A stretch of DNA of 64,000 nucleotides from Candidatus Peregrinibacteria bacterium. Its GTDB lineage: Bacteria > Patescibacteriota > Gracilibacteria > UM-FILTER-43-11. The translations under genes were made by a program, and so were the position numbers. The notes under the pieces are model-generated. The model was not told the origin of the DNA, ran no database searches, and saw only the letters and a list, made by a program, of their open reading frames with translations. This document shows positions 21,633 to 55,874 of this stretch, piece by piece. The stretch spans positions 4,973-68,972 of the forward strand of contig JAFGCR010000011.1 in assembly GCA_016932495.1 (NCBI GenBank). Direction: 5' to 3'. Numbering within the stretch: position 1 is the first letter of the stretch; each line of letters begins with the position of its first letter.

Positions 21633-23408
21633 TTAAATGTACATCATAATCGGAATAATCATAGGCTCGCGGCCCAGCCGCTTGCGGATGAACCGGCTGA
21701 TAGGAAGCGCTAGCTCTTTTTTGAGCGTTTTCAGGTCGATATTCCGGTTGTCCTGCACCACTTGTTCAAAAGCTTTTTTGGCTACCTGTTTTGTTTCAGA
21801 GGCAATCTCCTGCGACTCCTTTACATACACAAATCCCCTTGAAATGATATCCGGTTCACACACGAGCCGTTTGGTTTCCTCGTAGGCATGGAACAAGAGG
21901 ATCAGAATACCGTCGGTCGACATGACTTTCCGCTCCTGGATCACTTTTGAACCAATGTCCCCAAATCCAAGCCCGTCTACCAGAATGTCGTTCGCTGGGA
22001 TTTTTTGTTTGGATTTGCGGGTTCCCTGTTTGCTTACTTCCAGTACGTCGCCATTACTTTCCAGCATGGTAATGGTCATGGTGGGGTCGGCGACGGACTT
22101 GATCATTTCCGCATGGCCCATGCGCATGAACAATTCTCCGTGAATCGGCACATAGCACTTAGGTTTAATGAGTGAATACATCAGTTTGATTTCTTCCTGG
22201 TGCGCGTGCCCGGAGGTATGGATATCCATATCCCCGTTCGTAATCACTTTCGCCCCCTGCCGGTACAGGTTATTGATGACGTTCACAATGGCCAGTTCGT
22301 TTCCGGGGATCGGACTGGCGGAAATGACGACAGTGTCTCCTTCGTGGATTTTAACGTGGGGATGTTCGCCGATGGCCATGCGCGTGAGCGCGCTTAATGT
22401 TTCCCCTTGGGCGCCCGTGGTCAGAATAATCGTCTGGCTGGGCGGCAATGAAGTGGCATGGGGGCCGATTTTGCGCACCGTTCCTTTAGGATAGGTGGTG
22501 TACCCCAGGTCTTCAGCCAGTTTCATGTTCTCTATCATTGACCGGCCCGACAAAAACACTTTACGATTGTGCCTTGAAGCAATATTAACGATTTGGTTAA
22601 TACGTCCGATCAAAGAGGAAAAGGATGCGATAATGAGCCGGCCTTTGGTTTTAGAAATAACATCCTCCAGATTCTCCGCAATATTTTTTTCTGACCGACA
22701 GAAACCAGGCTTACTTGCGTTTGTGCTGTCGATCATCAGCACGTCTACGCCTCTCTGGCCAAGCTGAGAAATCCGTTGCATGTCCGCTGGCTTGTCGATG
22801 GCGGGAGAGTGGTCGAATTTAAAATCTCCTGTGTGCACCAGGGTGCCGGCAGGCGATTTTACAAACACGCCCATTCCGTCTGGAATGCTGTGATTGACGC
22901 GGAAAAATTCTACCTCGAAAGCCCCTAATTTAAGTGTGGTCGTTTCATTGTATTCGTGAATCCTGGCGCTTTTATCCAGTGCGAATTCCCGCAAACGATT
23001 CTTCAGCAGGCCCGCTGTCAGTTTTGTGGCGTAAAGAGGAGGGTTCCCTAGTTTGGGAATGACATATTGGGCCGCGCCGATGTGATCCAGATGGCCATGG
23101 GTAAAGATGATACCCCGCACGTTATGTCTCCGTTTTTGCAGGTACGAAACATCCGGCACAATATAATCAACGCCGAGCATTTCCGGCCCGGCGAACGACA
23201 TCCCGCAGTCAATCAGAATAATGTCATTGCCGTATTCAATGGCCATGATATTTTTGCCGACTTCTTCCAGACCGCCCAGCGGGATGATGCGCATCTTCGC
23301 GCCCTCATGCCCGGCGGATTGGTGATTTTTGTGGCGGCGGAAATGCCTGTGTTTTGAATGTTTTTGGTTACTGTTTTTATTCACCCATTCAGATATATTT
23401 TTGTCCAT
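21633..23408 (-). CDS. rnj: ribonuclease J (MBL / beta-CASP)
   Basis: RIIPLGGLEEVGKNIMAIEYGNDIILIDCG, FTHGHLDHIGA, HTSGHA. A basic His-rich N-terminal tail. Confidence 0.9.
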   Translation of the reverse strand: MDKNISEWVNKNSNQKHSKHRHFRRHKNHQSAGHEGAKMRIIPLGGLEEVGKNIMAIEYGNDIILIDCGMSFAGPEMLGVDYIVPDVSYLQKRRHNVRGIIFTHGHLDHIGAAQYVIPKLGNPPLYATKLTAGLLKNRLREFALDKSARIHEYNETTTLKLGAFEVEFFRVNHSIPDGMGVFVKSPAGTLVHTGDFKFDHSPAIDKPADMQRISQLGQRGVDVLMIDSTNASKPGFCRSEKNIAENLEDVISKTKGRLIIASFSSLIGRINQIVNIASRHNRKVFLSGRSMIENMKLAEDLGYTTYPKGTVRKIGPHATSLPPSQTIILTTGAQGETLSALTRMAIGEHPHVKIHEGDTVVISASPIPGNELAIVNVINNLYRQGAKVITNGDMDIHTSGHAHQEEIKLMYSLIKPKCYVPIHGELFMRMGHAEMIKSVADPTMTITMLESNGDVLEVSKQGTRKSKQKIPANDILVDGLGFGDIGSKVIQERKVMSTDGILILLFHAYEETKRLVCEPDIISRGFVYVKESQEIASETKQVAKKAFEQVVQDNRNIDLKTLKKELALPISRFIRKRLGREPMIIPIMMYI

Positions 23409-30277: not shown

Positions 30278-30439
30278 ATGGTGGTTGATTAGCGTTCGGA
30301 GATTATCTTATCATATCTCTAAGAAGCCCGACAAATCATTGTCAGGTTTTTTGGACAGAGTGTCTTTTTTGAATTATTTGGGTTGGGGGCTCAGCTTCCG
30401 TTGTCGTTTAAAACATTGGAAGCCGAGCCCACGTTGGGG

Positions 30440-30922: not shown

Positions 30923-31063
30923 CTCTGACTCCTGTTACCTTGTTCAGACACATTTTCCCCCGAACCACTCGGAGAAAGAATGATTTGTCTGAGCAATTAC
31001 CCAACCCGGATAATTCAAACTTTATTTAAAAAGATCAACAACACAATTTATGTGATGATGAAC

Positions 31064-46796: not shown

Positions 46797-47181
46797 AGTG
46801 CAAGTGGCAAGTGCAAGTTGCAAGCTAGGTTTTGCAATGCGCTATTTTTGTGATAAGGTCTTAATCCTAATTTATGTTTAGAGATTTATTTTTTGCAAGA
46901 TCAGTTAAAACGTGCGTCGATTTCGGTCGTTCTTAATATTGCCGAGGGTGTTGGTCGATTTACAAAAGCAGACAAAAGCCATTTTTATATTATCAGTCGT
47001 GGGTCTGCCTTTGAGGTGATTGCAGTATTGCAAATTATTGCAAACCAATATTCAGTTGATCCAAATGTTTTATGTCATTTGCGGGCAGATTTTAAAGAAG
47101 TAGTAAAAATGCTTTTTGGTTTAATAAAAAACGTTAGTCCAAAGCCAATTTTATAGGTCACTTGCACTTGCCACTTGCACT
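46797..47181. repeat. perfect 22-bp inverted repeat pair bracketing the second four-helix-bundle gene
   Basis: AGTGCAAGTGGCAAGTGCAAGT at 46797-46818 and ACTTGCACTTGCCACTTGCACT at 47160-47181. Confidence 0.85.
46874..47156 (+). pseudogene. four-helix-bundle (Avd / 23S-IVS-like) gene, apparently 5'-deleted or frameshifted
   Basis: ORF 46893..47156 (TTG start) encodes only ..QLKRASISVVLNIAEGVGRF..SRGSAFE... A family-typical start MFRDL sits at 46874 in another frame, next to a T6 run. Confidence 0.55.
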
Positions 47182-47859: not shown

Positions 47860-49887
47860 ATGGACAATCTTGAAAAAGAACTTTACCGGCTGTCGAAAGT
47901 GGAACCCAGTTCCAAGTTTTGCCGTCAGGCGAAAGACCGCTTGATACACAAAATCACCTTAAGCGCGAATGAAGCCTGGTTTTTAAGGTTGTTTAAAAAG
48001 GTGTTTTCGGTCAGTCCTTCTCCTTATTTTATTGAGCGTGCCCGTGTGCGTCTATTAGAACAGATCGAAGCCATGAAACGGCCGGTTTTCAGCTGGCTGC
48101 TTTTTACCAAGCGTGTGGTGGCCACTACGCTGGTCATGCTGATCGCCGTTACTACCACTTTGTTCTTTGTTGACGGCAAACAGCAGGTCAACGCGTCTGA
48201 GCCCACCTATTTAGAAGTCACGGGTGGAGAGGTCGCCGTTAAGCACGCTGATCGTCTGATTTGGGATGTGATCAATCAGCAGACCGAACTCATGGCGGGC
48301 GACTTAATACGTGTGGGTGATTCCGCGTCTGCAGTCATCCACTTTTTTGACGATTCCGAAATTCGTTTATCCGAAGACGCCTCCCTTTTATTGAGCCGGT
48401 TAGACGTCAGCCCCGGTTACGCCCGCCAGGGGATTATTGAGGTTTCTTTGCATCAGGGACGGGCATGGGTGCAGACTTTGAATGCCGATGACGGTTACGC
48501 GCGTTTTGCTCTGGTTACTCCCGACGCCATTGTTTCCACTCAGTATGCTTCGTTCGACGTTGAAACCAACCTTTTTGCCCCCACGGTCATCCGCGTATTT
48601 AAGCGCGGCGTGGAGGTAAAAGCCCTGCGTCAGGAATCCCGCGATGTGCTGGCGAGCGGTATGCTTAACACTTATCAAAAAGTCACCCTGGAGGCGGCCA
48701 CTCCCTATCAGCCCTCTGCTGATCTGTCGGTTTTTGCTCCCATTTATGAACTTACCGACGAAGACCGCGGAGAGGCATGGGCTTCCCAGAATCTGGAAGC
48801 TGACCGCGCTCATTTGGCTCAATTACGCGACCGCGAACTCATTACCCTCCGCGCGACGACGGGCTTTTTGCCGGGTCAGGTCTTGTATCCCGTAAAACGG
48901 GCCAAGGAACGCCTGCAGCTGGCTTTTGCCTTTAATGAAGAAAATCAGCAAAACACGCAGGTCGCCATGGCGAATGAACGTTTATCTGAGGCATTGGTTC
49001 TGATCGAACAAGGCCAGACCGACCCAGCCAAGCTGGCTTTAATGGAATATCAGCACCTTGTCCGCCAAATAACGGAGGCAAAGACCACCGAAGAAGTCAA
49101 AGACCAGTTATCTAACCAGGTAGTCGCCACCCATCAAAAAACCCTTGTCGCGGCCCTGCCGGGTGACGCGCGGGTGGGAATCATAAAACAAGCGCTCGAT
49201 CAAACCAAAGAACTGTTAGCGGAAAATCCTGTGGAACGTGCCCAGATCCGTTTAAAAAACAGCCTGGAAGACATGATCCATGTTCAGGAGCTGGTGGAGG
49301 CCGGCGACATAGAAAGCGCTGAAGAAACCCTTGTGGACCGCGAAATCATGGCCGTTTTATTATTAGAAGAAGCATCGGCCCTGGAGGATGAGGAGCAAAA
49401 GAAGGTTTTATTCACCCAAATCCTGGATACTCAATACGAAGAACAGCGCATTCTGAACGAATTAAACCGCCAGCTGGCCGATACAGAAGGCCCATTGGCG
49501 GCTTTGATTGAGAACGCCCACTTATCCATCAAGGAAGACATCAAACATACCGCCGCGGTGGTCCAGCCCCTCCTTCCGGACGTGGTTTTGAGCGAAGCGG
49601 TGATCCTGCCGGAAGACGAAAAGGTTATTGAGTTTGTAAACAAGGTCAATATTTACAGCACGGCCCAGGGGCAGGCTAACCAGATCAAACGCCTGCTTAC
49701 CAAGCACCCGCAATACGCCCAGAATCAGGAATTCCTGACCAAAGTCCGCGACCGTCTGGACGCGCGCTCTCAGGACCAGATCAACGTGTATCTGCTTGAA
49801 CTGAAGCGCGAAGCGACCGAGGCGAAAAGCAAAGTGGTGAAGCGGAAGATCGATCAGGCGAAGCGGGCGATGGAAGATAGGCGATAA
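47860..49887 (+). CDS. putative anti-sigma factor-like membrane protein (single TM, FecR-like beta domain, long helical C-terminal region)
   Basis: ATG at 47860 is preferred over 47668, which overlaps the sigma gene. TM segment VVATTLVMLIAVTTTLFFV. GDLIRVGDSASAVIHFFDDSEIRLSEDASLLL. Sits directly downstream of the ECF sigma. Confidence 0.6.
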   Translation: MDNLEKELYRLSKVEPSSKFCRQAKDRLIHKITLSANEAWFLRLFKKVFSVSPSPYFIERARVRLLEQIEAMKRPVFSWLLFTKRVVATTLVMLIAVTTTLFFVDGKQQVNASEPTYLEVTGGEVAVKHADRLIWDVINQQTELMAGDLIRVGDSASAVIHFFDDSEIRLSEDASLLLSRLDVSPGYARQGIIEVSLHQGRAWVQTLNADDGYARFALVTPDAIVSTQYASFDVETNLFAPTVIRVFKRGVEVKALRQESRDVLASGMLNTYQKVTLEAATPYQPSADLSVFAPIYELTDEDRGEAWASQNLEADRAHLAQLRDRELITLRATTGFLPGQVLYPVKRAKERLQLAFAFNEENQQNTQVAMANERLSEALVLIEQGQTDPAKLALMEYQHLVRQITEAKTTEEVKDQLSNQVVATHQKTLVAALPGDARVGIIKQALDQTKELLAENPVERAQIRLKNSLEDMIHVQELVEAGDIESAEETLVDREIMAVLLLEEASALEDEEQKKVLFTQILDTQYEEQRILNELNRQLADTEGPLAALIENAHLSIKEDIKHTAAVVQPLLPDVVLSEAVILPEDEKVIEFVNKVNIYSTAQGQANQIKRLLTKHPQYAQNQEFLTKVRDRLDARSQDQINVYLLELKREATEAKSKVVKRKIDQAKRAMEDRR

Positions 49888-50011
49888 TGAATGGCAAATA
49901 GTTTTTTGTCATCGCAGGTTAGAAAACCTGCTCTGCCAAATGGACTATTAATTTTATTATTTTCAAAGGCAGAGCGGACTTTCTAGTCCGCGAATGCCGT
50001 TTTTTGGCATA

Positions 50012-50051
50012 GGAAAAGAGCGCCGACCGACGGGGAAGTCGGTGACGCTCT
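50012..50051 (-). terminator. GC-rich hairpin plus U-tract downstream of the GC-rich 342-aa gene
   Basis: GAGCG..ACCGAC (50018-50031) pairs with GTCGGT..CGCTC (50038-50050). An A-run at 50014-50017 on the plus strand gives the U-tract on the minus strand. Confidence 0.65.
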
Positions 50052-50076
50052 TTGGAGGGGAGTTCTGGTCCAGCGA

Positions 50077-51105
50077 TCAGCTGAGCTGGCGCTGGGTGTT
50101 CGTGTTCGGTTTGACGAAGGTGCCGGTGAGCACCATCGCCAGGCAGCCTGCGCCGACCATGGCCAGGGCGGCCACAGGGCTGAAGCTGTAAGCGATGATG
50201 ATGGCACACACCAGGGAGCCTGCGCCGATGAGGCTCTTGCCGAGCCGGCCAGGCGTTGCCACGGTGATGTGGGCGCCCGTGCGGCGCATGTTGATGGCCG
50301 TGATGAGCTGGATGAGGGCAAAGTAGAGTCCTGCCAGCAGGGCCAGGATGAGCAGGAACGAGGTGGTGCCTGAGACACCGTGTTCCACGGTAGCTGCGGC
50401 CTGACCGGCCGATGACAGCTTGGGCTCAGTGGGGCTGAAGTAGTCCACCGAGTCATCCCGATAGGACACGATTTTGACCTCCTCGTCCTGGACGATTTGG
50501 TCTTCAGGGGCGTCGATTGCCCCGCGCGTGAGATACCGGTCCCGCGGGACGAGGGGGGATTCTTCCAGCGGGATGCCGAGGCTGCTGATCAGCCAGTTGT
50601 TGACGTCGCCGTCCGGCAGGAAGCGTCCGACCATGTTGAGGGTCACTGGCAGGATGCTGACCTTGCGCTTGCCCTTCTCAACGGTGAGATGGGCGTAGAG
50701 CAAGCACTCGAGTTTGAGCTCGTACGTGCGGATCTGCAGGCCCTTCTCCTCGAGCTCGCTGACCCGGAACACCCGCTTGACCGGGTTGTTCGCGTTGGGG
50801 TTGGCTTGCTCACAGGTCGTGAAGTTCCCCCACTGGTAGTTCTCACGGTCGAAGTCGGCAGTACCGGGTGGGAACTTCTCGGACCAGAACAGGATGCGGT
50901 GGTTTTGGCGGTCCTTGTCCGCCTCGTCTTCGTAGAACACCACCGTGCCGTTGTTGGCGTTGATCACGTTGTAGAGCGCACGGGCGTCGTACTCGGTGAT
51001 CGCGACGCCGGGGCCACTAGCCTTTTGTTCGAACGTGACCTCCTTGGCGGAGGCCGGAGAGACGATGATCAGGGTCACCGCAACGATCAGTGCGAAGCGT
51101 TTCAT
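50077..51105 (-). CDS. secreted protein with a C-terminal multi-TM anchor, encoded by a compositionally foreign GC-rich gene
   Basis: GGGAGGA SD before the ATG. Signal peptide MKRFALIVAVTLIIVSPASA|KE. About 3 C-terminal TM helices. 43/60 G+C in 50221-50280. Confidence 0.7.
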   Translation of the reverse strand: MKRFALIVAVTLIIVSPASAKEVTFEQKASGPGVAITEYDARALYNVINANNGTVVFYEDEADKDRQNHRILFWSEKFPPGTADFDRENYQWGNFTTCEQANPNANNPVKRVFRVSELEEKGLQIRTYELKLECLLYAHLTVEKGKRKVSILPVTLNMVGRFLPDGDVNNWLISSLGIPLEESPLVPRDRYLTRGAIDAPEDQIVQDEEVKIVSYRDDSVDYFSPTEPKLSSAGQAAATVEHGVSGTTSFLLILALLAGLYFALIQLITAINMRRTGAHITVATPGRLGKSLIGAGSLVCAIIIAYSFSPVAALAMVGAGCLAMVLTGTFVKPNTNTQRQLS

Positions 51106-51348
51106 GGTTTTCCTCCCTATTTCTAGTTCGTTTGAACCTTGGTTACCAAAAGTACAACTCGCCTGCGGGCGAGAAAAAGAGACGTTAAATTTATCTATTT
51201 AGCTCGCGTTGGCGAGAGTGTTTATTGCGACCAGAACTCCTTGCCTGCCAGGAGCTTTACGTCCCCTAGGGGCGCTGGGCTACACTAACAGACAGAAGGA
51301 TGGCCGCAATGAAGCTAATTGTAAAAGAACATGATTGAAAGTGAAAAT

Positions 51349-51377
51349 ATTATACAATATTTACTATAAAATGTCAA
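51349..51377 (-). promoter_or_regulatory. perfect consensus sigma-70 promoter TTGACA-N17-TATAAT (minus strand)
   Basis: -35 is the reverse complement of 51372-51377; -10 is the reverse complement of 51349-51354. The leader is about 240 nt and carries several GC hairpins. Confidence 0.7.
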
Positions 51378-51416
51378 TACATTTCTGCCCTTCTTTTTTC
51401 CATTAATTTTTTTGAT

Positions 51417-52370
51417 TTATGTTGCGAAATTATAGGCAAGCGGCTGTGGGCGTTTGATAATAGCGCGCGCCCTTTCGCGGATGCTTTGCACACCGCCTAA
51501 TTTAAAGATTTCACCTACACCTGAGAGTATTTTTAAGCCTTTATGCTGGCGCCGAAAGCCGTTTGTAACCGATTCTACAGGGGTCAGGGCAGTTCTTGTA
51601 ATATTAGCGCCATAAGAAAAGCCAGCTAACCCGATTTCTCCTATAGTGGCCCCCACACCCCTTCCAAAGGCCTCAAAAGGCTGTGTAAAGGCCTTTCCTG
51701 GCAAGGTGGCAGGCGATATAACGTGATGCAGAGCCTGGCGGCTATCTCTGGCCATCAGAGCCTTTGGGGCATCCCATAGTGCTCTTTTGAGCCCCTTAAG
51801 GCCCTGCCAGGGCACATTTACGGGGAATTTTATACATTCCCAGCCAAAACGCGCGGCTTTGCTGATGCCAGTGGCCGGAATATTCCACATAGTCCGGAAA
51901 CCTGTCATGATATTGTCATGAAGCGCGTACATAGGCAGGCGCACAAACATGCTTTTGCCAGATTCTATAACCGGTCCGCCGGTAAGATGATAGGCGCCCA
52001 CAGGTAATCGGGCAGTTTGTTTTAACATTGTTTTTCCCGGTTCGTAATAGCTACTGGTTTTAACATAGTTTTTTACCCCTCTGGTACCCGCCTTGAGGCC
52101 CTCCCAGGGCAAAACTAACCCCGCGTAAAAGGGGGCGACTAATAATCTTGGGATCACTCCTTTTACGCTTTTGGGGCTGATCAGCCAGCGGCCTACACGC
52201 CAGTTTTTGGGAGCTTCCGCAGCCTCTGCGGCTACTGCTTCTGTTTTTTTACCCAAGCCGATTTTGCCTGCCAGGCCGCCCAGTTTTTCACTGAGTTTAT
52301 AAGTCAGGCGTTTTTCCGTTAAGAGCGGGTTGGTTTGGTAGTGCCGGTAATGTGAGGTGGTGGTATACAT
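51417..52370 (-). CDS. hypothetical basic protein
   Basis: 317-aa ORF in the minus-strand array. No motif recognised. Confidence 0.6.
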   Translation of the reverse strand: MYTTTSHYRHYQTNPLLTEKRLTYKLSEKLGGLAGKIGLGKKTEAVAAEAAEAPKNWRVGRWLISPKSVKGVIPRLLVAPFYAGLVLPWEGLKAGTRGVKNYVKTSSYYEPGKTMLKQTARLPVGAYHLTGGPVIESGKSMFVRLPMYALHDNIMTGFRTMWNIPATGISKAARFGWECIKFPVNVPWQGLKGLKRALWDAPKALMARDSRQALHHVISPATLPGKAFTQPFEAFGRGVGATIGEIGLAGFSYGANITRTALTPVESVTNGFRRQHKGLKILSGVGEIFKLGGVQSIRERARAIIKRPQPLAYNFAT

Positions 52371-54936: not shown

Positions 54937-55716
54937 TCAGGCCATGCGGATCATGGTGTCGCGGGCCACTTCGGCGAGCGGCTCCAGGGAGCTCTCGCGC
55001 AGGTCCATGGCCCTCTGGATCTCGTTGTACATCGTGTCGATGAGGGCGTGGTCGTCCGGATGGTCCTCGGTGAGGCCATCGCGGAGGTGCTCCATGGCGA
55101 CCATGAAGGCCGGAGCGTCGAACATCCCGTGCTTTTGGAGGCTGGGATCGTTCTGGAAGCCTTCGTACAGGTCGCCGAAGCAATTGGCAATGATCTTGGC
55201 CTTGGGGTTGCCCCGGAAGGCTTTGATCGTGCCCATGGACCGGATGGCCCCGCCACTGAGACGGGCGGCTCCGGTGATGATGCCGGCACTGCCGCGGCCG
55301 AGCGCCTTGGTCCCCTTGCCGATCGAAGAGAACCAGCTGCGGTTGAAGAAAAACATGGTGATGAGCAGGAGCGCCATAGCCGACCAGATGCCAGAGCTGA
55401 CCAGGGTGATCAGTGCGACGATGAGCGAGTAGCCCACTACGACACGGATGATCCATCCGAGAATGGGGACCATGCTGGTGATCGAGATAATGCCCCAGAT
55501 CTTGCGCCCCCACATAAAGAGGGCGTAGGCGAAGATGATCCACTTGATGAAGGCGAGGTCCCCGTCGAGCTTGATGTTCCACGGGAGGTGGTTCGTCACG
55601 AGCAGGACCTTGGCGGCCAGCACTTCGGGGAGGTTGATGAGAAACATGATGATGTTCACCAGGGTCTCACCAACTCCGTAGATCGCGTTGACCTTCTCTT
55701 TGAATTCTTCCCACAT
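54937..55716 (-). CDS. polytopic membrane protein with a soluble C-terminal domain, encoded by a compositionally foreign GC-rich gene
   Basis: AAGGAAG SD before the ATG. About 4 TM helices. 24 of the first 32 codons end in G/C, with all Ile as ATC and all Asn as AAC. 37/60 G+C in 55021-55080, against 24/60 in 56101-56160. Confidence 0.7.
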   Translation of the reverse strand: MWEEFKEKVNAIYGVGETLVNIIMFLINLPEVLAAKVLLVTNHLPWNIKLDGDLAFIKWIIFAYALFMWGRKIWGIISITSMVPILGWIIRVVVGYSLIVALITLVSSGIWSAMALLLITMFFFNRSWFSSIGKGTKALGRGSAGIITGAARLSGGAIRSMGTIKAFRGNPKAKIIANCFGDLYEGFQNDPSLQKHGMFDAPAFMVAMEHLRDGLTEDHPDDHALIDTMYNEIQRAMDLRESSLEPLAEVARDTMIRMA

Positions 55717-55874
55717 GTTTCACTTCCTTTCGTATTCCTAAGCCCGCAGGCTTGTTTTCAGGTTCACAACAATGAGTTCGACCGCCGCTCAAGAGAGCAA
55801 AATTACTCCTTGGGCGACAGACCGCTCATTGCTGTTTTAGCGATTTTTAAAAGAGCATTGTTACAGAGATAGTT

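Follow-up and report, generated by a model that had tools for sequence, protein, structure and literature searches.

Pairing between the 5′ and 3′ untranslated regions (UTRs) of one and the same bacterial mRNA is known from a few single genes, such as hbs and icaR, and from type I toxins. In Bacillus subtilis, a 14-bp helix between the 5′UTR and the 3′UTR of the hbs mRNA shields the transcript from RNase Y (Braun, Durand & Condon 2017, PMC5737220). In Staphylococcus aureus, the sequence UCCCCUG in the 3′UTR of the icaR mRNA pairs with the Shine-Dalgarno (SD) sequence, giving a substrate for RNase III (Ruiz de los Mozos et al. 2013, PMC3868564). Among the mRNAs of type I toxins, including hok and aapA1/aapA3, metastable local hairpins yield to a 5′-3′ long-distance interaction after transcription (Masachis et al. 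2019, PMC6733600). The locus described here lies in a 64,000-nucleotide (nt) stretch of contig JAFGCR010000011.1 from a Candidatus Peregrinibacteria bacterium, the whole of which is called the window, and centers on a GC-rich gene of the minus strand (segment B; open reading frame (ORF) 50077..51105, encoding 342 aa) whose structured leader contains 12 nt exactly complementary to an element behind its stop codon. This leader is probably, at a rough probability of 0.7, a conserved cis-regulatory RNA of an undescribed leader family in Peregrinibacteria that forms a long-range helix linking the 5′UTR to the 3′UTR.

On the mRNA, the leader half of the pair, GGAGUUCUGGUC (51229..51240, minus strand), is the 3′ arm at the base of a hairpin, and its exact complement in the 3′UTR, GACCAGAACUCC (50059..50070, minus strand), lies 6 nt past the stop codon and before an intrinsic terminator. 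Within the 2-kb region, no perfect inverted repeat is as long as that of the 12-mers as originally given, GGAGTTCTGGTC (50059-50070) and GACCAGAACTCC (51229-51240), whose empirical P against 3000 random 90-nt windows is 0.001, bearing out the exact 12-bp 5′/3′ complementarity of the original prediction. A third copy of the 10-mer, found within the coding sequence (CDS; 50881-50890), encodes LFWSE where homologues have LFFAE and IFFAE, and was taken as chance.

Five B loci were compared, namely that of the window, whose genome is denoted G000, and those of L001, L002, L019, and L047. All five leaders fold to an imperfect 87-nt hairpin (51224..51310 in the window, minus strand), with the pyrimidine run CCAUCCUUCUGU in its 5′ arm and CAAGGAGUUCUGGUCGCAA in its 3′ arm, followed by a 5-bp hairpin (51203..51216, minus strand; CUCGC-NAAC-GCGAG) in which three of the five pairs are doubly compensated (UCAGC/GCUGA in L047). 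The fold of the whole leader has z = -4.1, and RNAalifold together with pair counts finds 98.4% of cells paired and eight pairs changed on both sides, a result matched by none of 500 shuffles, with slid registers only ∼40% paired. The comparison of homologous leaders envisaged in the original prediction thus finds the hairpin conserved and covarying. At the level of the 12-mer pair, 10-11 nt are invariant in the five loci: GGAGUUCUGG of the leader half and CCAGAACUCC of the 3′ half are unchanged in all of them, and ACCAGAACUCC of the 3′ half is unchanged in the window, L001, L002, and L019 and present in L047 too, with variable flanks. The basal 3′ strand of the hairpin has two possible partners as judged from its sequence, an imperfect local 5′ arm and a perfect 3′UTR element. 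When leader, linker, and 3′UTR are folded as chimeras, the end-paired form is the minimum free energy structure in three of the five loci and lies within 1.4-2.7 kcal/mol of it in the others, so that a switch between the local hairpin and the end-paired form appears energetically feasible in these models.

The pair is not confined to the B loci. A BLAST-type search with the leader in 32 genomes of the order returned promoter-like matches only, and remote members required a covariance model. The model of the B leader (R1) recovered remote homologues in genomes G022, G020, and G069 and also matched the segment C orthologue in L001; the second-round model (R2) recovered 17 leaders in 12 of the 31 genomes of the Peregrinibacteria family, including B and C of the window and three tandem cassettes of G020, and R1 and R2 together gave one further leader in another family (the E-values of these home-made models are rough). 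The new members carry a promoter or the motif UGNUCUUUWAAAA, a long hairpin, usually a strong SD, an ORF rich in GC at third codon positions (GC3), and a terminator. In 13 of the 14 new members, the best perfect complement between leader and 3′UTR measures 8-14 nt, with a sequence that differs per lineage. On the leader side, these complements fall at positions 101-130, within the basal 3′ arm of the hairpin; on the 3′UTR side, they lie mostly 0-13 nt past the stop codon, before the terminator. Against random windows, P ≤ 0.01 is reached in 9 of the 14, and the earlier matches gave 0.002 (G022) and 0.005 (G020a) beside the 0.001 of the window; RNAduplex energies were dropped as a family statistic in favor of the perfect match, as they are noisy from unbounded loops. 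Examples are CAGAGUUUUUGG in the leader and CCAAAAACUCUG in the 3′UTR of G022, GGUUCUCUCAGC and GCUGAGAGAACC in G011, CUCUCUGUUGUGC and its complement in G016a, and AGGUUUCGGGU and ACCCGAAACCU in G013.

Compensatory changes distinguish three orthologous pairs. An unrelated GC3-rich gene of G000 (C20:7835-9013; the C20 family) has a 16-nt complement between leader and terminator, in which GGUUCAC/GUGAACC corresponds to GGUCCAC/GUGGACC of G011, a genome of the same genus, and of which G022 carries a shifted 13-nt version. The lipoprotein gene on C9 of G000 and its orthologue G022b differ by GAUUCCCCC/GGGGGAAUC against GAUUCUCCC/GGGAGAAUC, a compensated change of C-G to U-A, and the same kind of compensatory change separates the segment C pairs of the window and L002. 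G024 keeps the G022-type duplex by means of a G.U pair on the sense strand. In addition, the sense strand folds better than the antisense strand in 16 of 20 leaders (means -50.2 vs -41.9 kcal/mol; p = 5e-4). The hairpin and the 5′/3′ complementarity are thus conserved and covarying, the structure is strand-specific, and the two conformations are nearly equal in energy. Taken together, the family-wide complements, the compensatory changes, the G.U pair, and the sense-strand bias indicate that the 5′/3′ complementarity is under selection and acts in the coding-strand RNA. The suggestion that the mRNA ends could pair accordingly gains strong support from covariation across the leader family.

Long 5′UTR hairpins that stabilize the mRNAs of abundant envelope proteins are well known, and the long stabilizing 5′UTRs of Escherichia coli ompA and Lactobacillus slpA are of this kind. 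The B gene resembles them in having a consensus promoter, a long hairpin-bearing 5′UTR, and a strong SD before a probably abundant surface protein. The hairpin might function alone, as a 5′ stabilizer or an RNase III site like those of the ompA, slpA, and cspA leaders, with the 3′ complementarity incidental; RNase III is encoded in the genome, and the only substitution within the 12-mers of the B clade favors the hairpin. Such a reading is very unlikely: 13 of 14 further members carry a lineage-specific complement in the corresponding position, and three orthologue pairs show compensatory changes, neither of which chance complementarity would explain. Leaders of the ompA/slpA type act by the 5′ hairpin alone and are not known to have a conserved 3′UTR partner.

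Other cassettes of the same genome show the same arrangement. The leader of segment C (55749..55873, minus strand; ORF 54937..55716) is an R2 match at E = 4.9e-9 and has its own pair, UGUUGUGAAC(C)CUG/CAGAGUUCACAACA, and segment A contains a 20-nt pair, 90% complementary, at 31000-31019 and 30368-30387. A genome-wide scan that compared the last 250 nt upstream with the first 50 nt downstream of each gene found a 5′/3′ complement of at least 10 nt in 5 of 18 genes with GC3 ≥ 0.70 and in 41 of 1016 others (Fisher p = 8e-4; permutation null 2.4%). A second gene class is flanked by perfect inverted repeats of 16-22 nt (12 cases of at least 15 nt, vs ∼0.7 expected) and is mostly small and AT-rich (GC3 0.26-0.46), with two of the longest repeats flanking larger ORFs (GC3 0.54-0.62); examples in G000 are C25:51865-52128 (window 46893-47156), C25:26127-26534, C11:14356-15240, C50:3762-4718, and C41:2902-3294. 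Among the remote members, G020 carries three tandem family cassettes ∼1.3-1.4 kb apart, each with its own promoter (C163:3300-9216; L095), that encode paralogous membrane proteins of 266-298 aa, and the first two share one 14-nt end-pairing sequence. In G021 (C11:1-3050; L099), a family leader precedes a short-chain dehydrogenase (SDR)-like ORF (GKFAIVTGAGGGIG...) with a GC3 of 0.89 on a contig of 43% GC. Because of this ORF, which looks foreign, the family cargo is not confined to surface proteins.

The leader family has two hallmarks of mRNAs with a 5′UTR-3′UTR long-distance interaction, the pairing itself being predicted. Complementarity beyond chance is found at the B locus as well as in other members, and compensatory change is found in the C20, C9, and segment C pairs, the B-clade pair being invariant but for one uncompensated change in L047. 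As in hbs, a highly structured 5′UTR precedes a strong SD, and a short helix (11-14 bp), here a predicted one, joins the 5′UTR and 3′UTR of one mRNA. The organism also encodes RNase Y and RNase J, whose access the hbs helix controls: the RNase J gene (TIGR00649, 543 bits) lies in the window itself (21642-23291, minus strand), RNase Y is encoded at C4:5823-7364, and, with RNase III at C34:6605-6985, they make up a Bacillus-type mRNA decay set. The comparison differs in two respects, since hbs is a single housekeeping gene, whereas here a modular leader family precedes ∼20 unrelated accessory genes, and since the 5′ partner here is a hairpin arm, so that the helix competes with local structure. 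The likeness to icaR is that a C-rich 3′UTR element complements a GGAG-containing 5′UTR segment of the same mRNA in an organism that encodes RNase III, and in one cassette of G000 (C45, 502 aa) a 10-mer of the 3′UTR pairs with the real SD. In the B gene, by contrast, the target is an SD-like decoy that forms part of the leader hairpin and precedes the real SD by 125 nt, and the predicted accessibility of the real SD is unchanged. With the type I toxin mRNAs, the family shares a three-strand logic, in which a 5′ hairpin comes first and a 3′-terminal element can then capture one of its strands, and a fold conserved by compensatory mutations at many loci. The cargo, however, consists of secreted or membrane proteins of 146-1187 aa and an enzyme rather than of peptides of at most 60 aa; no antisense antitoxin gene was found here, and sequestration of the SD is not evident.

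On this basis, a model can be proposed in which the long local hairpin would form co-transcriptionally in the 5′UTR and the 3′ element, once transcribed, could take the place of its 5′ arm, so that a long-range helix would connect the two mRNA ends. The helix would act post-transcriptionally, as in the hbs, icaR, and type I toxin mRNAs, and may control how readily RNase Y, J, or III, and perhaps ribosomes as well, reach the leader. By analogy, it could shield the leader from RNase Y in the manner of hbs, or create an RNase III site and block initiation in the manner of icaR. Active translation should keep the ends apart, because a terminating ribosome usually has the 3′ element inside its footprint or right next to it; the closed form would then persist only on untranslated, idle mRNA, which would couple the fate of the mRNA to its translation. 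The pairing may stabilize the mRNA or silence it.

Several observations weigh against a 5′-3′ helix in cis as the function of the leader. The B clade offers little covariation in the 12-mers, and its sole change, U to C in L047, helps the local hairpin and costs one long-range pair. A few family members have the 3′ partner 31-79 nt past the stop codon, behind a hairpin, and in G017, G002, G069, and G020_3 the matches of only 8-9 nt are not individually significant. The predicted accessibility of the SD is the same with the 3′UTR added (mean 0.37 vs 0.38; 19 members), which leaves a translational mechanism without computational support; the same values gave no support to release of an anti-SD, in which the 3′ element would set free the 5′ arm, rich in pyrimidines, so that it could mask the real SD. 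Lastly, pairing in cis would leave the same sequence pattern as pairing in trans by a fragment derived from the 3′UTR. The 3′ element and terminator could be released as a 3′UTR-derived small RNA (sRNA) that pairs with its own or sister leaders, in an autoregulation of the OppZ/CarZ type. In the usual anatomy of such sRNAs, a conserved single-stranded seed stands directly upstream of a conserved terminator hairpin, and the layout of the 3′UTR fits this; in G020, moreover, two neighboring cassettes both have leaders that match a single 3′ element. However, neither a processing site nor a promoter of its own can be seen for such an sRNA, and a seed that is private to each cassette suits one-to-one pairing, in cis or with itself, so that an sRNA acting in trans seems doubtful.

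The proposed cis helix is embedded in a complete transcription unit. A sigma-70 consensus promoter, TTGACA-N17-TATAAT, scores 12/12 at 51349..51377 (minus strand), in agreement with the perfect promoter that had been predicted, and both of its hexamers are unchanged in the window, L001, L002, L019, and L047; a similar promoter stands upstream of a leader fragment in L048, and the genome holds 92 promoters of this type in total. If transcription starts ∼7 nt past the -10 hexamer, as assumed, the 5′UTR measures ∼237 nt, and the leader is indeed unusually long. A strong SD, GGGAGG, read from the sequence at 51112..51117 (minus strand), lies 6 nt upstream of the ATG, and the intrinsic terminator (AAAGAGCG..CGCUCUUUU; 50011..50053, minus strand) is conserved across loci with two compensated alleles. 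The unit 51377..50011 on the minus strand is a self-contained expression cassette of promoter, structured 5′UTR, SD, ORF, stop codon, 3′ element, and terminator.

Between the promoter and the hairpin lies a 5′-proximal motif, AUGUUCUUUUACAAUUAG (51315..51332, minus strand), with the family consensus UGNUCUUUWAAAA, which starts 16-17 nt after the -10 hexamer and has been kept in every B locus. Since L047 carries ACG in place of its AUG, the motif does not encode a leader peptide. The motif is equally spaced in segments C and A, in the C9 and C12 cassettes, and in remote family members. Copies of UG(N)UCUUU(U)AAAA 15-17 nt past the -10 hexamer occur at 51315-51332, 55840-55857, and ∼31020-31040 of the window and at C9:31580, C12:1610, and C39:8725 of G000, and seven exact copies lie within 45 nt of the 92 consensus promoters, where, by a rough estimate, far fewer than one would be expected; candidate roles for the motif are those of a sigma-dependent pause site, of an operator, and of an RNA element. 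A metagenome scan with the invariant 18-mer CAAGGAGTTCTGGTCGCA gave 27 matches, all of them chance matches in coding DNA, and no leaders.

The original prediction took the long, structured leader to suggest attenuation or riboswitch-like control; the leader would then sense a ligand or a stalled ribosome and terminate transcription early at 51173..51158. Of the four hairpins then proposed, those at 51173..51158 and 51216..51203 are present, whereas CTCCT..AGGAG (51237-51254) and CCCCTAGGGG (51263-51272) turn out to be the 3′ arm and the apex of the 87-nt hairpin. The attenuator candidate is the hairpin at 51158..51173 (minus strand), called terminator-like for the UUGUACUUUU that follows it. 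It is not conserved: a 45-nt deletion has removed it from L001, L047 lacks it, and no U-run follows it in L019. The deletion in L001 (5940-5950, compared with window 51158-51216) ends inside repeated GCGAG arms and fuses two hairpins, and looks like slippage or recombination between short direct repeats. A covariance-model scan against Rfam 15 of positions 49500-52000 (E ≤ 10), which had been recommended, returned no match to the leader and five weak matches elsewhere, far under gathering scores. The conserved core is one long imperfect hairpin with no junction and no multi-helix ligand pocket, and no common ligand is obvious because unrelated cargo (surface proteins, lipoproteins, and an SDR enzyme) follows the family leaders. 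A leader peptide was likewise rejected, as the AUG of the mini-ORF MFFYN is ACG in L047 and no frame is conserved in the leaders, and so was an overlapping small ORF on either strand, for which no frame is conserved and indels of 1, 2, and 45 nt are present. Because the terminator-like hairpin, MFFYN, and the reading frames all fail conservation, attenuation, a leader peptide, and a hidden gene are rejected, and a riboswitch or attenuator is most improbable.

The conserved UTRs enclose a gene that varies strongly. In all five B loci, a 317-aa gene is followed by a spacer of 260-310 nt and then by the cargo, and a convergent anti-sigma/extracytoplasmic function (ECF) sigma pair follows wherever the contig extends that far (the anti-sigma neighbor in the window is DUF5667/FecR). 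Pairwise identities among the five are 73-89% (nt) for the leader and 80-92% (nt) for the 3′UTR, compared with 54-78% (aa) for the upstream gene and 20-65% (aa) for the cargo. In a three-way alignment, 72-77% of leader columns are invariant, equal to the sigma-factor gene and above nearly all coding DNA, while the other spacers at the locus have 0-30% invariant columns and intergenic DNA is otherwise unalignable. Among the non-coding DNA of the locus, the leader is thus conserved best, and its helices covary; the UTRs are the part retained while the ectodomain changes. In L019, which has the nearest neighbor gene (78%), the cargo is only 33% identical, with the leader at 82% and the 3′UTR at 85%, and the 3′UTR alleles are discordant with the neighbor-gene tree; this discordance of cargo, 3′UTR alleles, and neighbor genes suggests allele exchange inside a conserved frame. 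Further cargo replacement within conserved flanks is seen between G010 (C9:8056-9321) and C20:8048-9025 of G000, a genome of the same genus, where the leader (79%) and the downstream flank (85%) are kept and the middle and 3′ part of the 392-aa C20 gene have no DNA similarity. Two further observations concern possibly mobile DNA near these loci. L001 (7170-7290) and L047 (2560-2660) share an almost identical AT-rich palindrome of ∼100 nt (GATTAAATGATTAA..TTAATCATTTAATC) right after the cassette terminator, on contigs whose flanking proteins are only ∼58% identical, so that it may be a mobile or exchanged intergenic element, and L001 (721-1698) has an IS30-like transposase gene (HTH_38/rve) inside an orphan gene array, which the window and L002 lack.

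These patterns bear on the possibility that the repeats act on DNA, through inversion (phase variation) or exchange of the cargo, with the UTRs conserved as recombination substrates. Between conserved UTRs, the cargo has been replaced or has diverged strongly, out of step with its neighbor in L019 (33% vs 78%), the middle of the C20 gene is replaced in G010, the 3′UTR alleles depart from the neighbor-gene tree, the 3′ element is positioned exactly at the 3′ limit of variability, and a recombination hot spot with GC-biased gene conversion could account for the high GC3. The repeats differ, however, among cassettes of one genome (A, B, C, and C9), which argues against a single recombinase site, and the G.U wobble pairs and the sense-strand bias indicate RNA. 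The orientation is the same at all five B loci, the gene has no recombinase next to it in the window, the 5′ limit of variability lies ∼30 nt past the 12-mer, and homologous recombination needs more than 8-14 bp. It is accordingly unlikely that the repeats themselves have a role at the DNA level. The alternative first offered for the 12-mers, that they mark the edges of a transferred segment, holds to the extent that conserved UTRs bracket a hypervariable ORF with the 3′ element at the limit of variability; it fails in that the gene is syntenic and GC3-rich in five genomes, that GC jumps at the start codon (leader 0.42 vs CDS 0.62) rather than at the 12-mer, and that no homologue is found outside the clade. 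A recently transferred genomic islet was rejected because the cargo is GC3-rich in every genome and has no homologues beyond the clade. An integron gene cassette was rejected as well, as in each cassette a separate consensus promoter precedes the hairpin, no integrase is adjacent, and no GTTRRRY core was seen by eye in the leader hairpin.

The composition of the gene itself is unusual. The bin 50001-51000 has the highest GC of any 1-kb bin of the window (0.621, vs ∼0.47 elsewhere), confirming ORF 50077..51105 as its GC peak, and with a GC3 of 0.85 the ORF takes fourth place out of 1089 crude ORFs in the 1.18-Mb genome (mean 0.55). The codon bias of highly expressed genes was rejected as the source, with EF-Tu at 0.53, S12 at 0.60, and GroEL at 0.64; because housekeeping genes have a GC3 of only 0.53-0.65, the composition of the cargo is not ordinary expression-linked codon bias. 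In every genome of the five B loci, the GC3 of the cargo exceeds that of the neighbor gene by 0.27-0.36, a richness that may stem from lasting selection on the mRNA or from GC-biased conversion at loci prone to exchange.

The encoded protein of 342 aa (50077..51105, minus strand) appears to begin with a signal peptide, to continue in an orphan alpha/beta ectodomain, and to end in a membrane anchor of three C-terminal helices. The signal-like N-terminal segment MKRFALIVAVTLIIVSPASA was judged by eye, and an AlphaFold2 (AF2) model from a five-sequence alignment, of moderate confidence (predicted local distance difference test, pLDDT, 61.6), shows the alpha/beta ectodomain and three C-terminal helices (246-275, 287-307, and 310-329), consistent with the predicted secreted protein with a triple transmembrane anchor. 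Two close relatives were found among 5.8 billion proteins, at 61% and 58% identity by BLASTP (65% and 63% in a MAFFT alignment), and one distant relative, P0004, at ∼31% identity among 1.8 billion representatives; neither set contained a homologue outside the clade. The fifth locus was reached through the conserved upstream 317-aa gene, and its cargo of 228 aa is 22% identical, with a different, Cys-rich ectodomain and the same type of C-terminal three-helix anchor. Pfam and PDB-sequence searches with the 342-aa protein gave no match, and the fold search that had been proposed, with Foldseek and the AF2 model against the PDB, gave nothing usable (best E = 0.12, TM < 0.3). As modeled, the product appears to be an orphan, fast-evolving, membrane-anchored surface protein, and it is probably abundant.

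The cassette genes stand apart as a class by composition, by translation signal, by UTR architecture, and by product. An SD-like 4-mer at -18..-4 is found in only ∼5% of G000 genes, compared with a strong SD in 42-53% of genes with GC3 ≥ 0.70, and the 3′ end of the 16S rRNA keeps ACCUCCUUU, a pattern that points to two classes of translation initiation within this small genome. Their products are mostly signal-peptide proteins or lipoproteins, with the SDR enzyme of G021 among them. The class thus exposed, with a strong SD in an SD-poor genome and a GC3 of 0.6-0.9, is explained neither by expression codon bias nor by simple horizontal transfer. A tentative and rather speculative extension of the 5′-3′ helix is a genome-wide post-transcriptional licensing, in which a common cassette (5′ motif, decoy-SD hairpin, and private end-pairing “zip code”) would close mRNAs and tie their life to translation, with the UTRs as a constant frame for the exchange of hypervariable or foreign ORFs. 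What is new in these uncultured bacteria of the candidate phyla radiation (CPR) is a modular, family-wide form of predicted 5′-3′ UTR pairing with private, covarying end-pairing sequences. The leader model provides a sequence handle on fast-evolving Peregrinibacteria surface proteins that homology searches miss, and, with ∼20 natural compensatory variants, end-to-end closure as a general form of bacterial mRNA control becomes testable.

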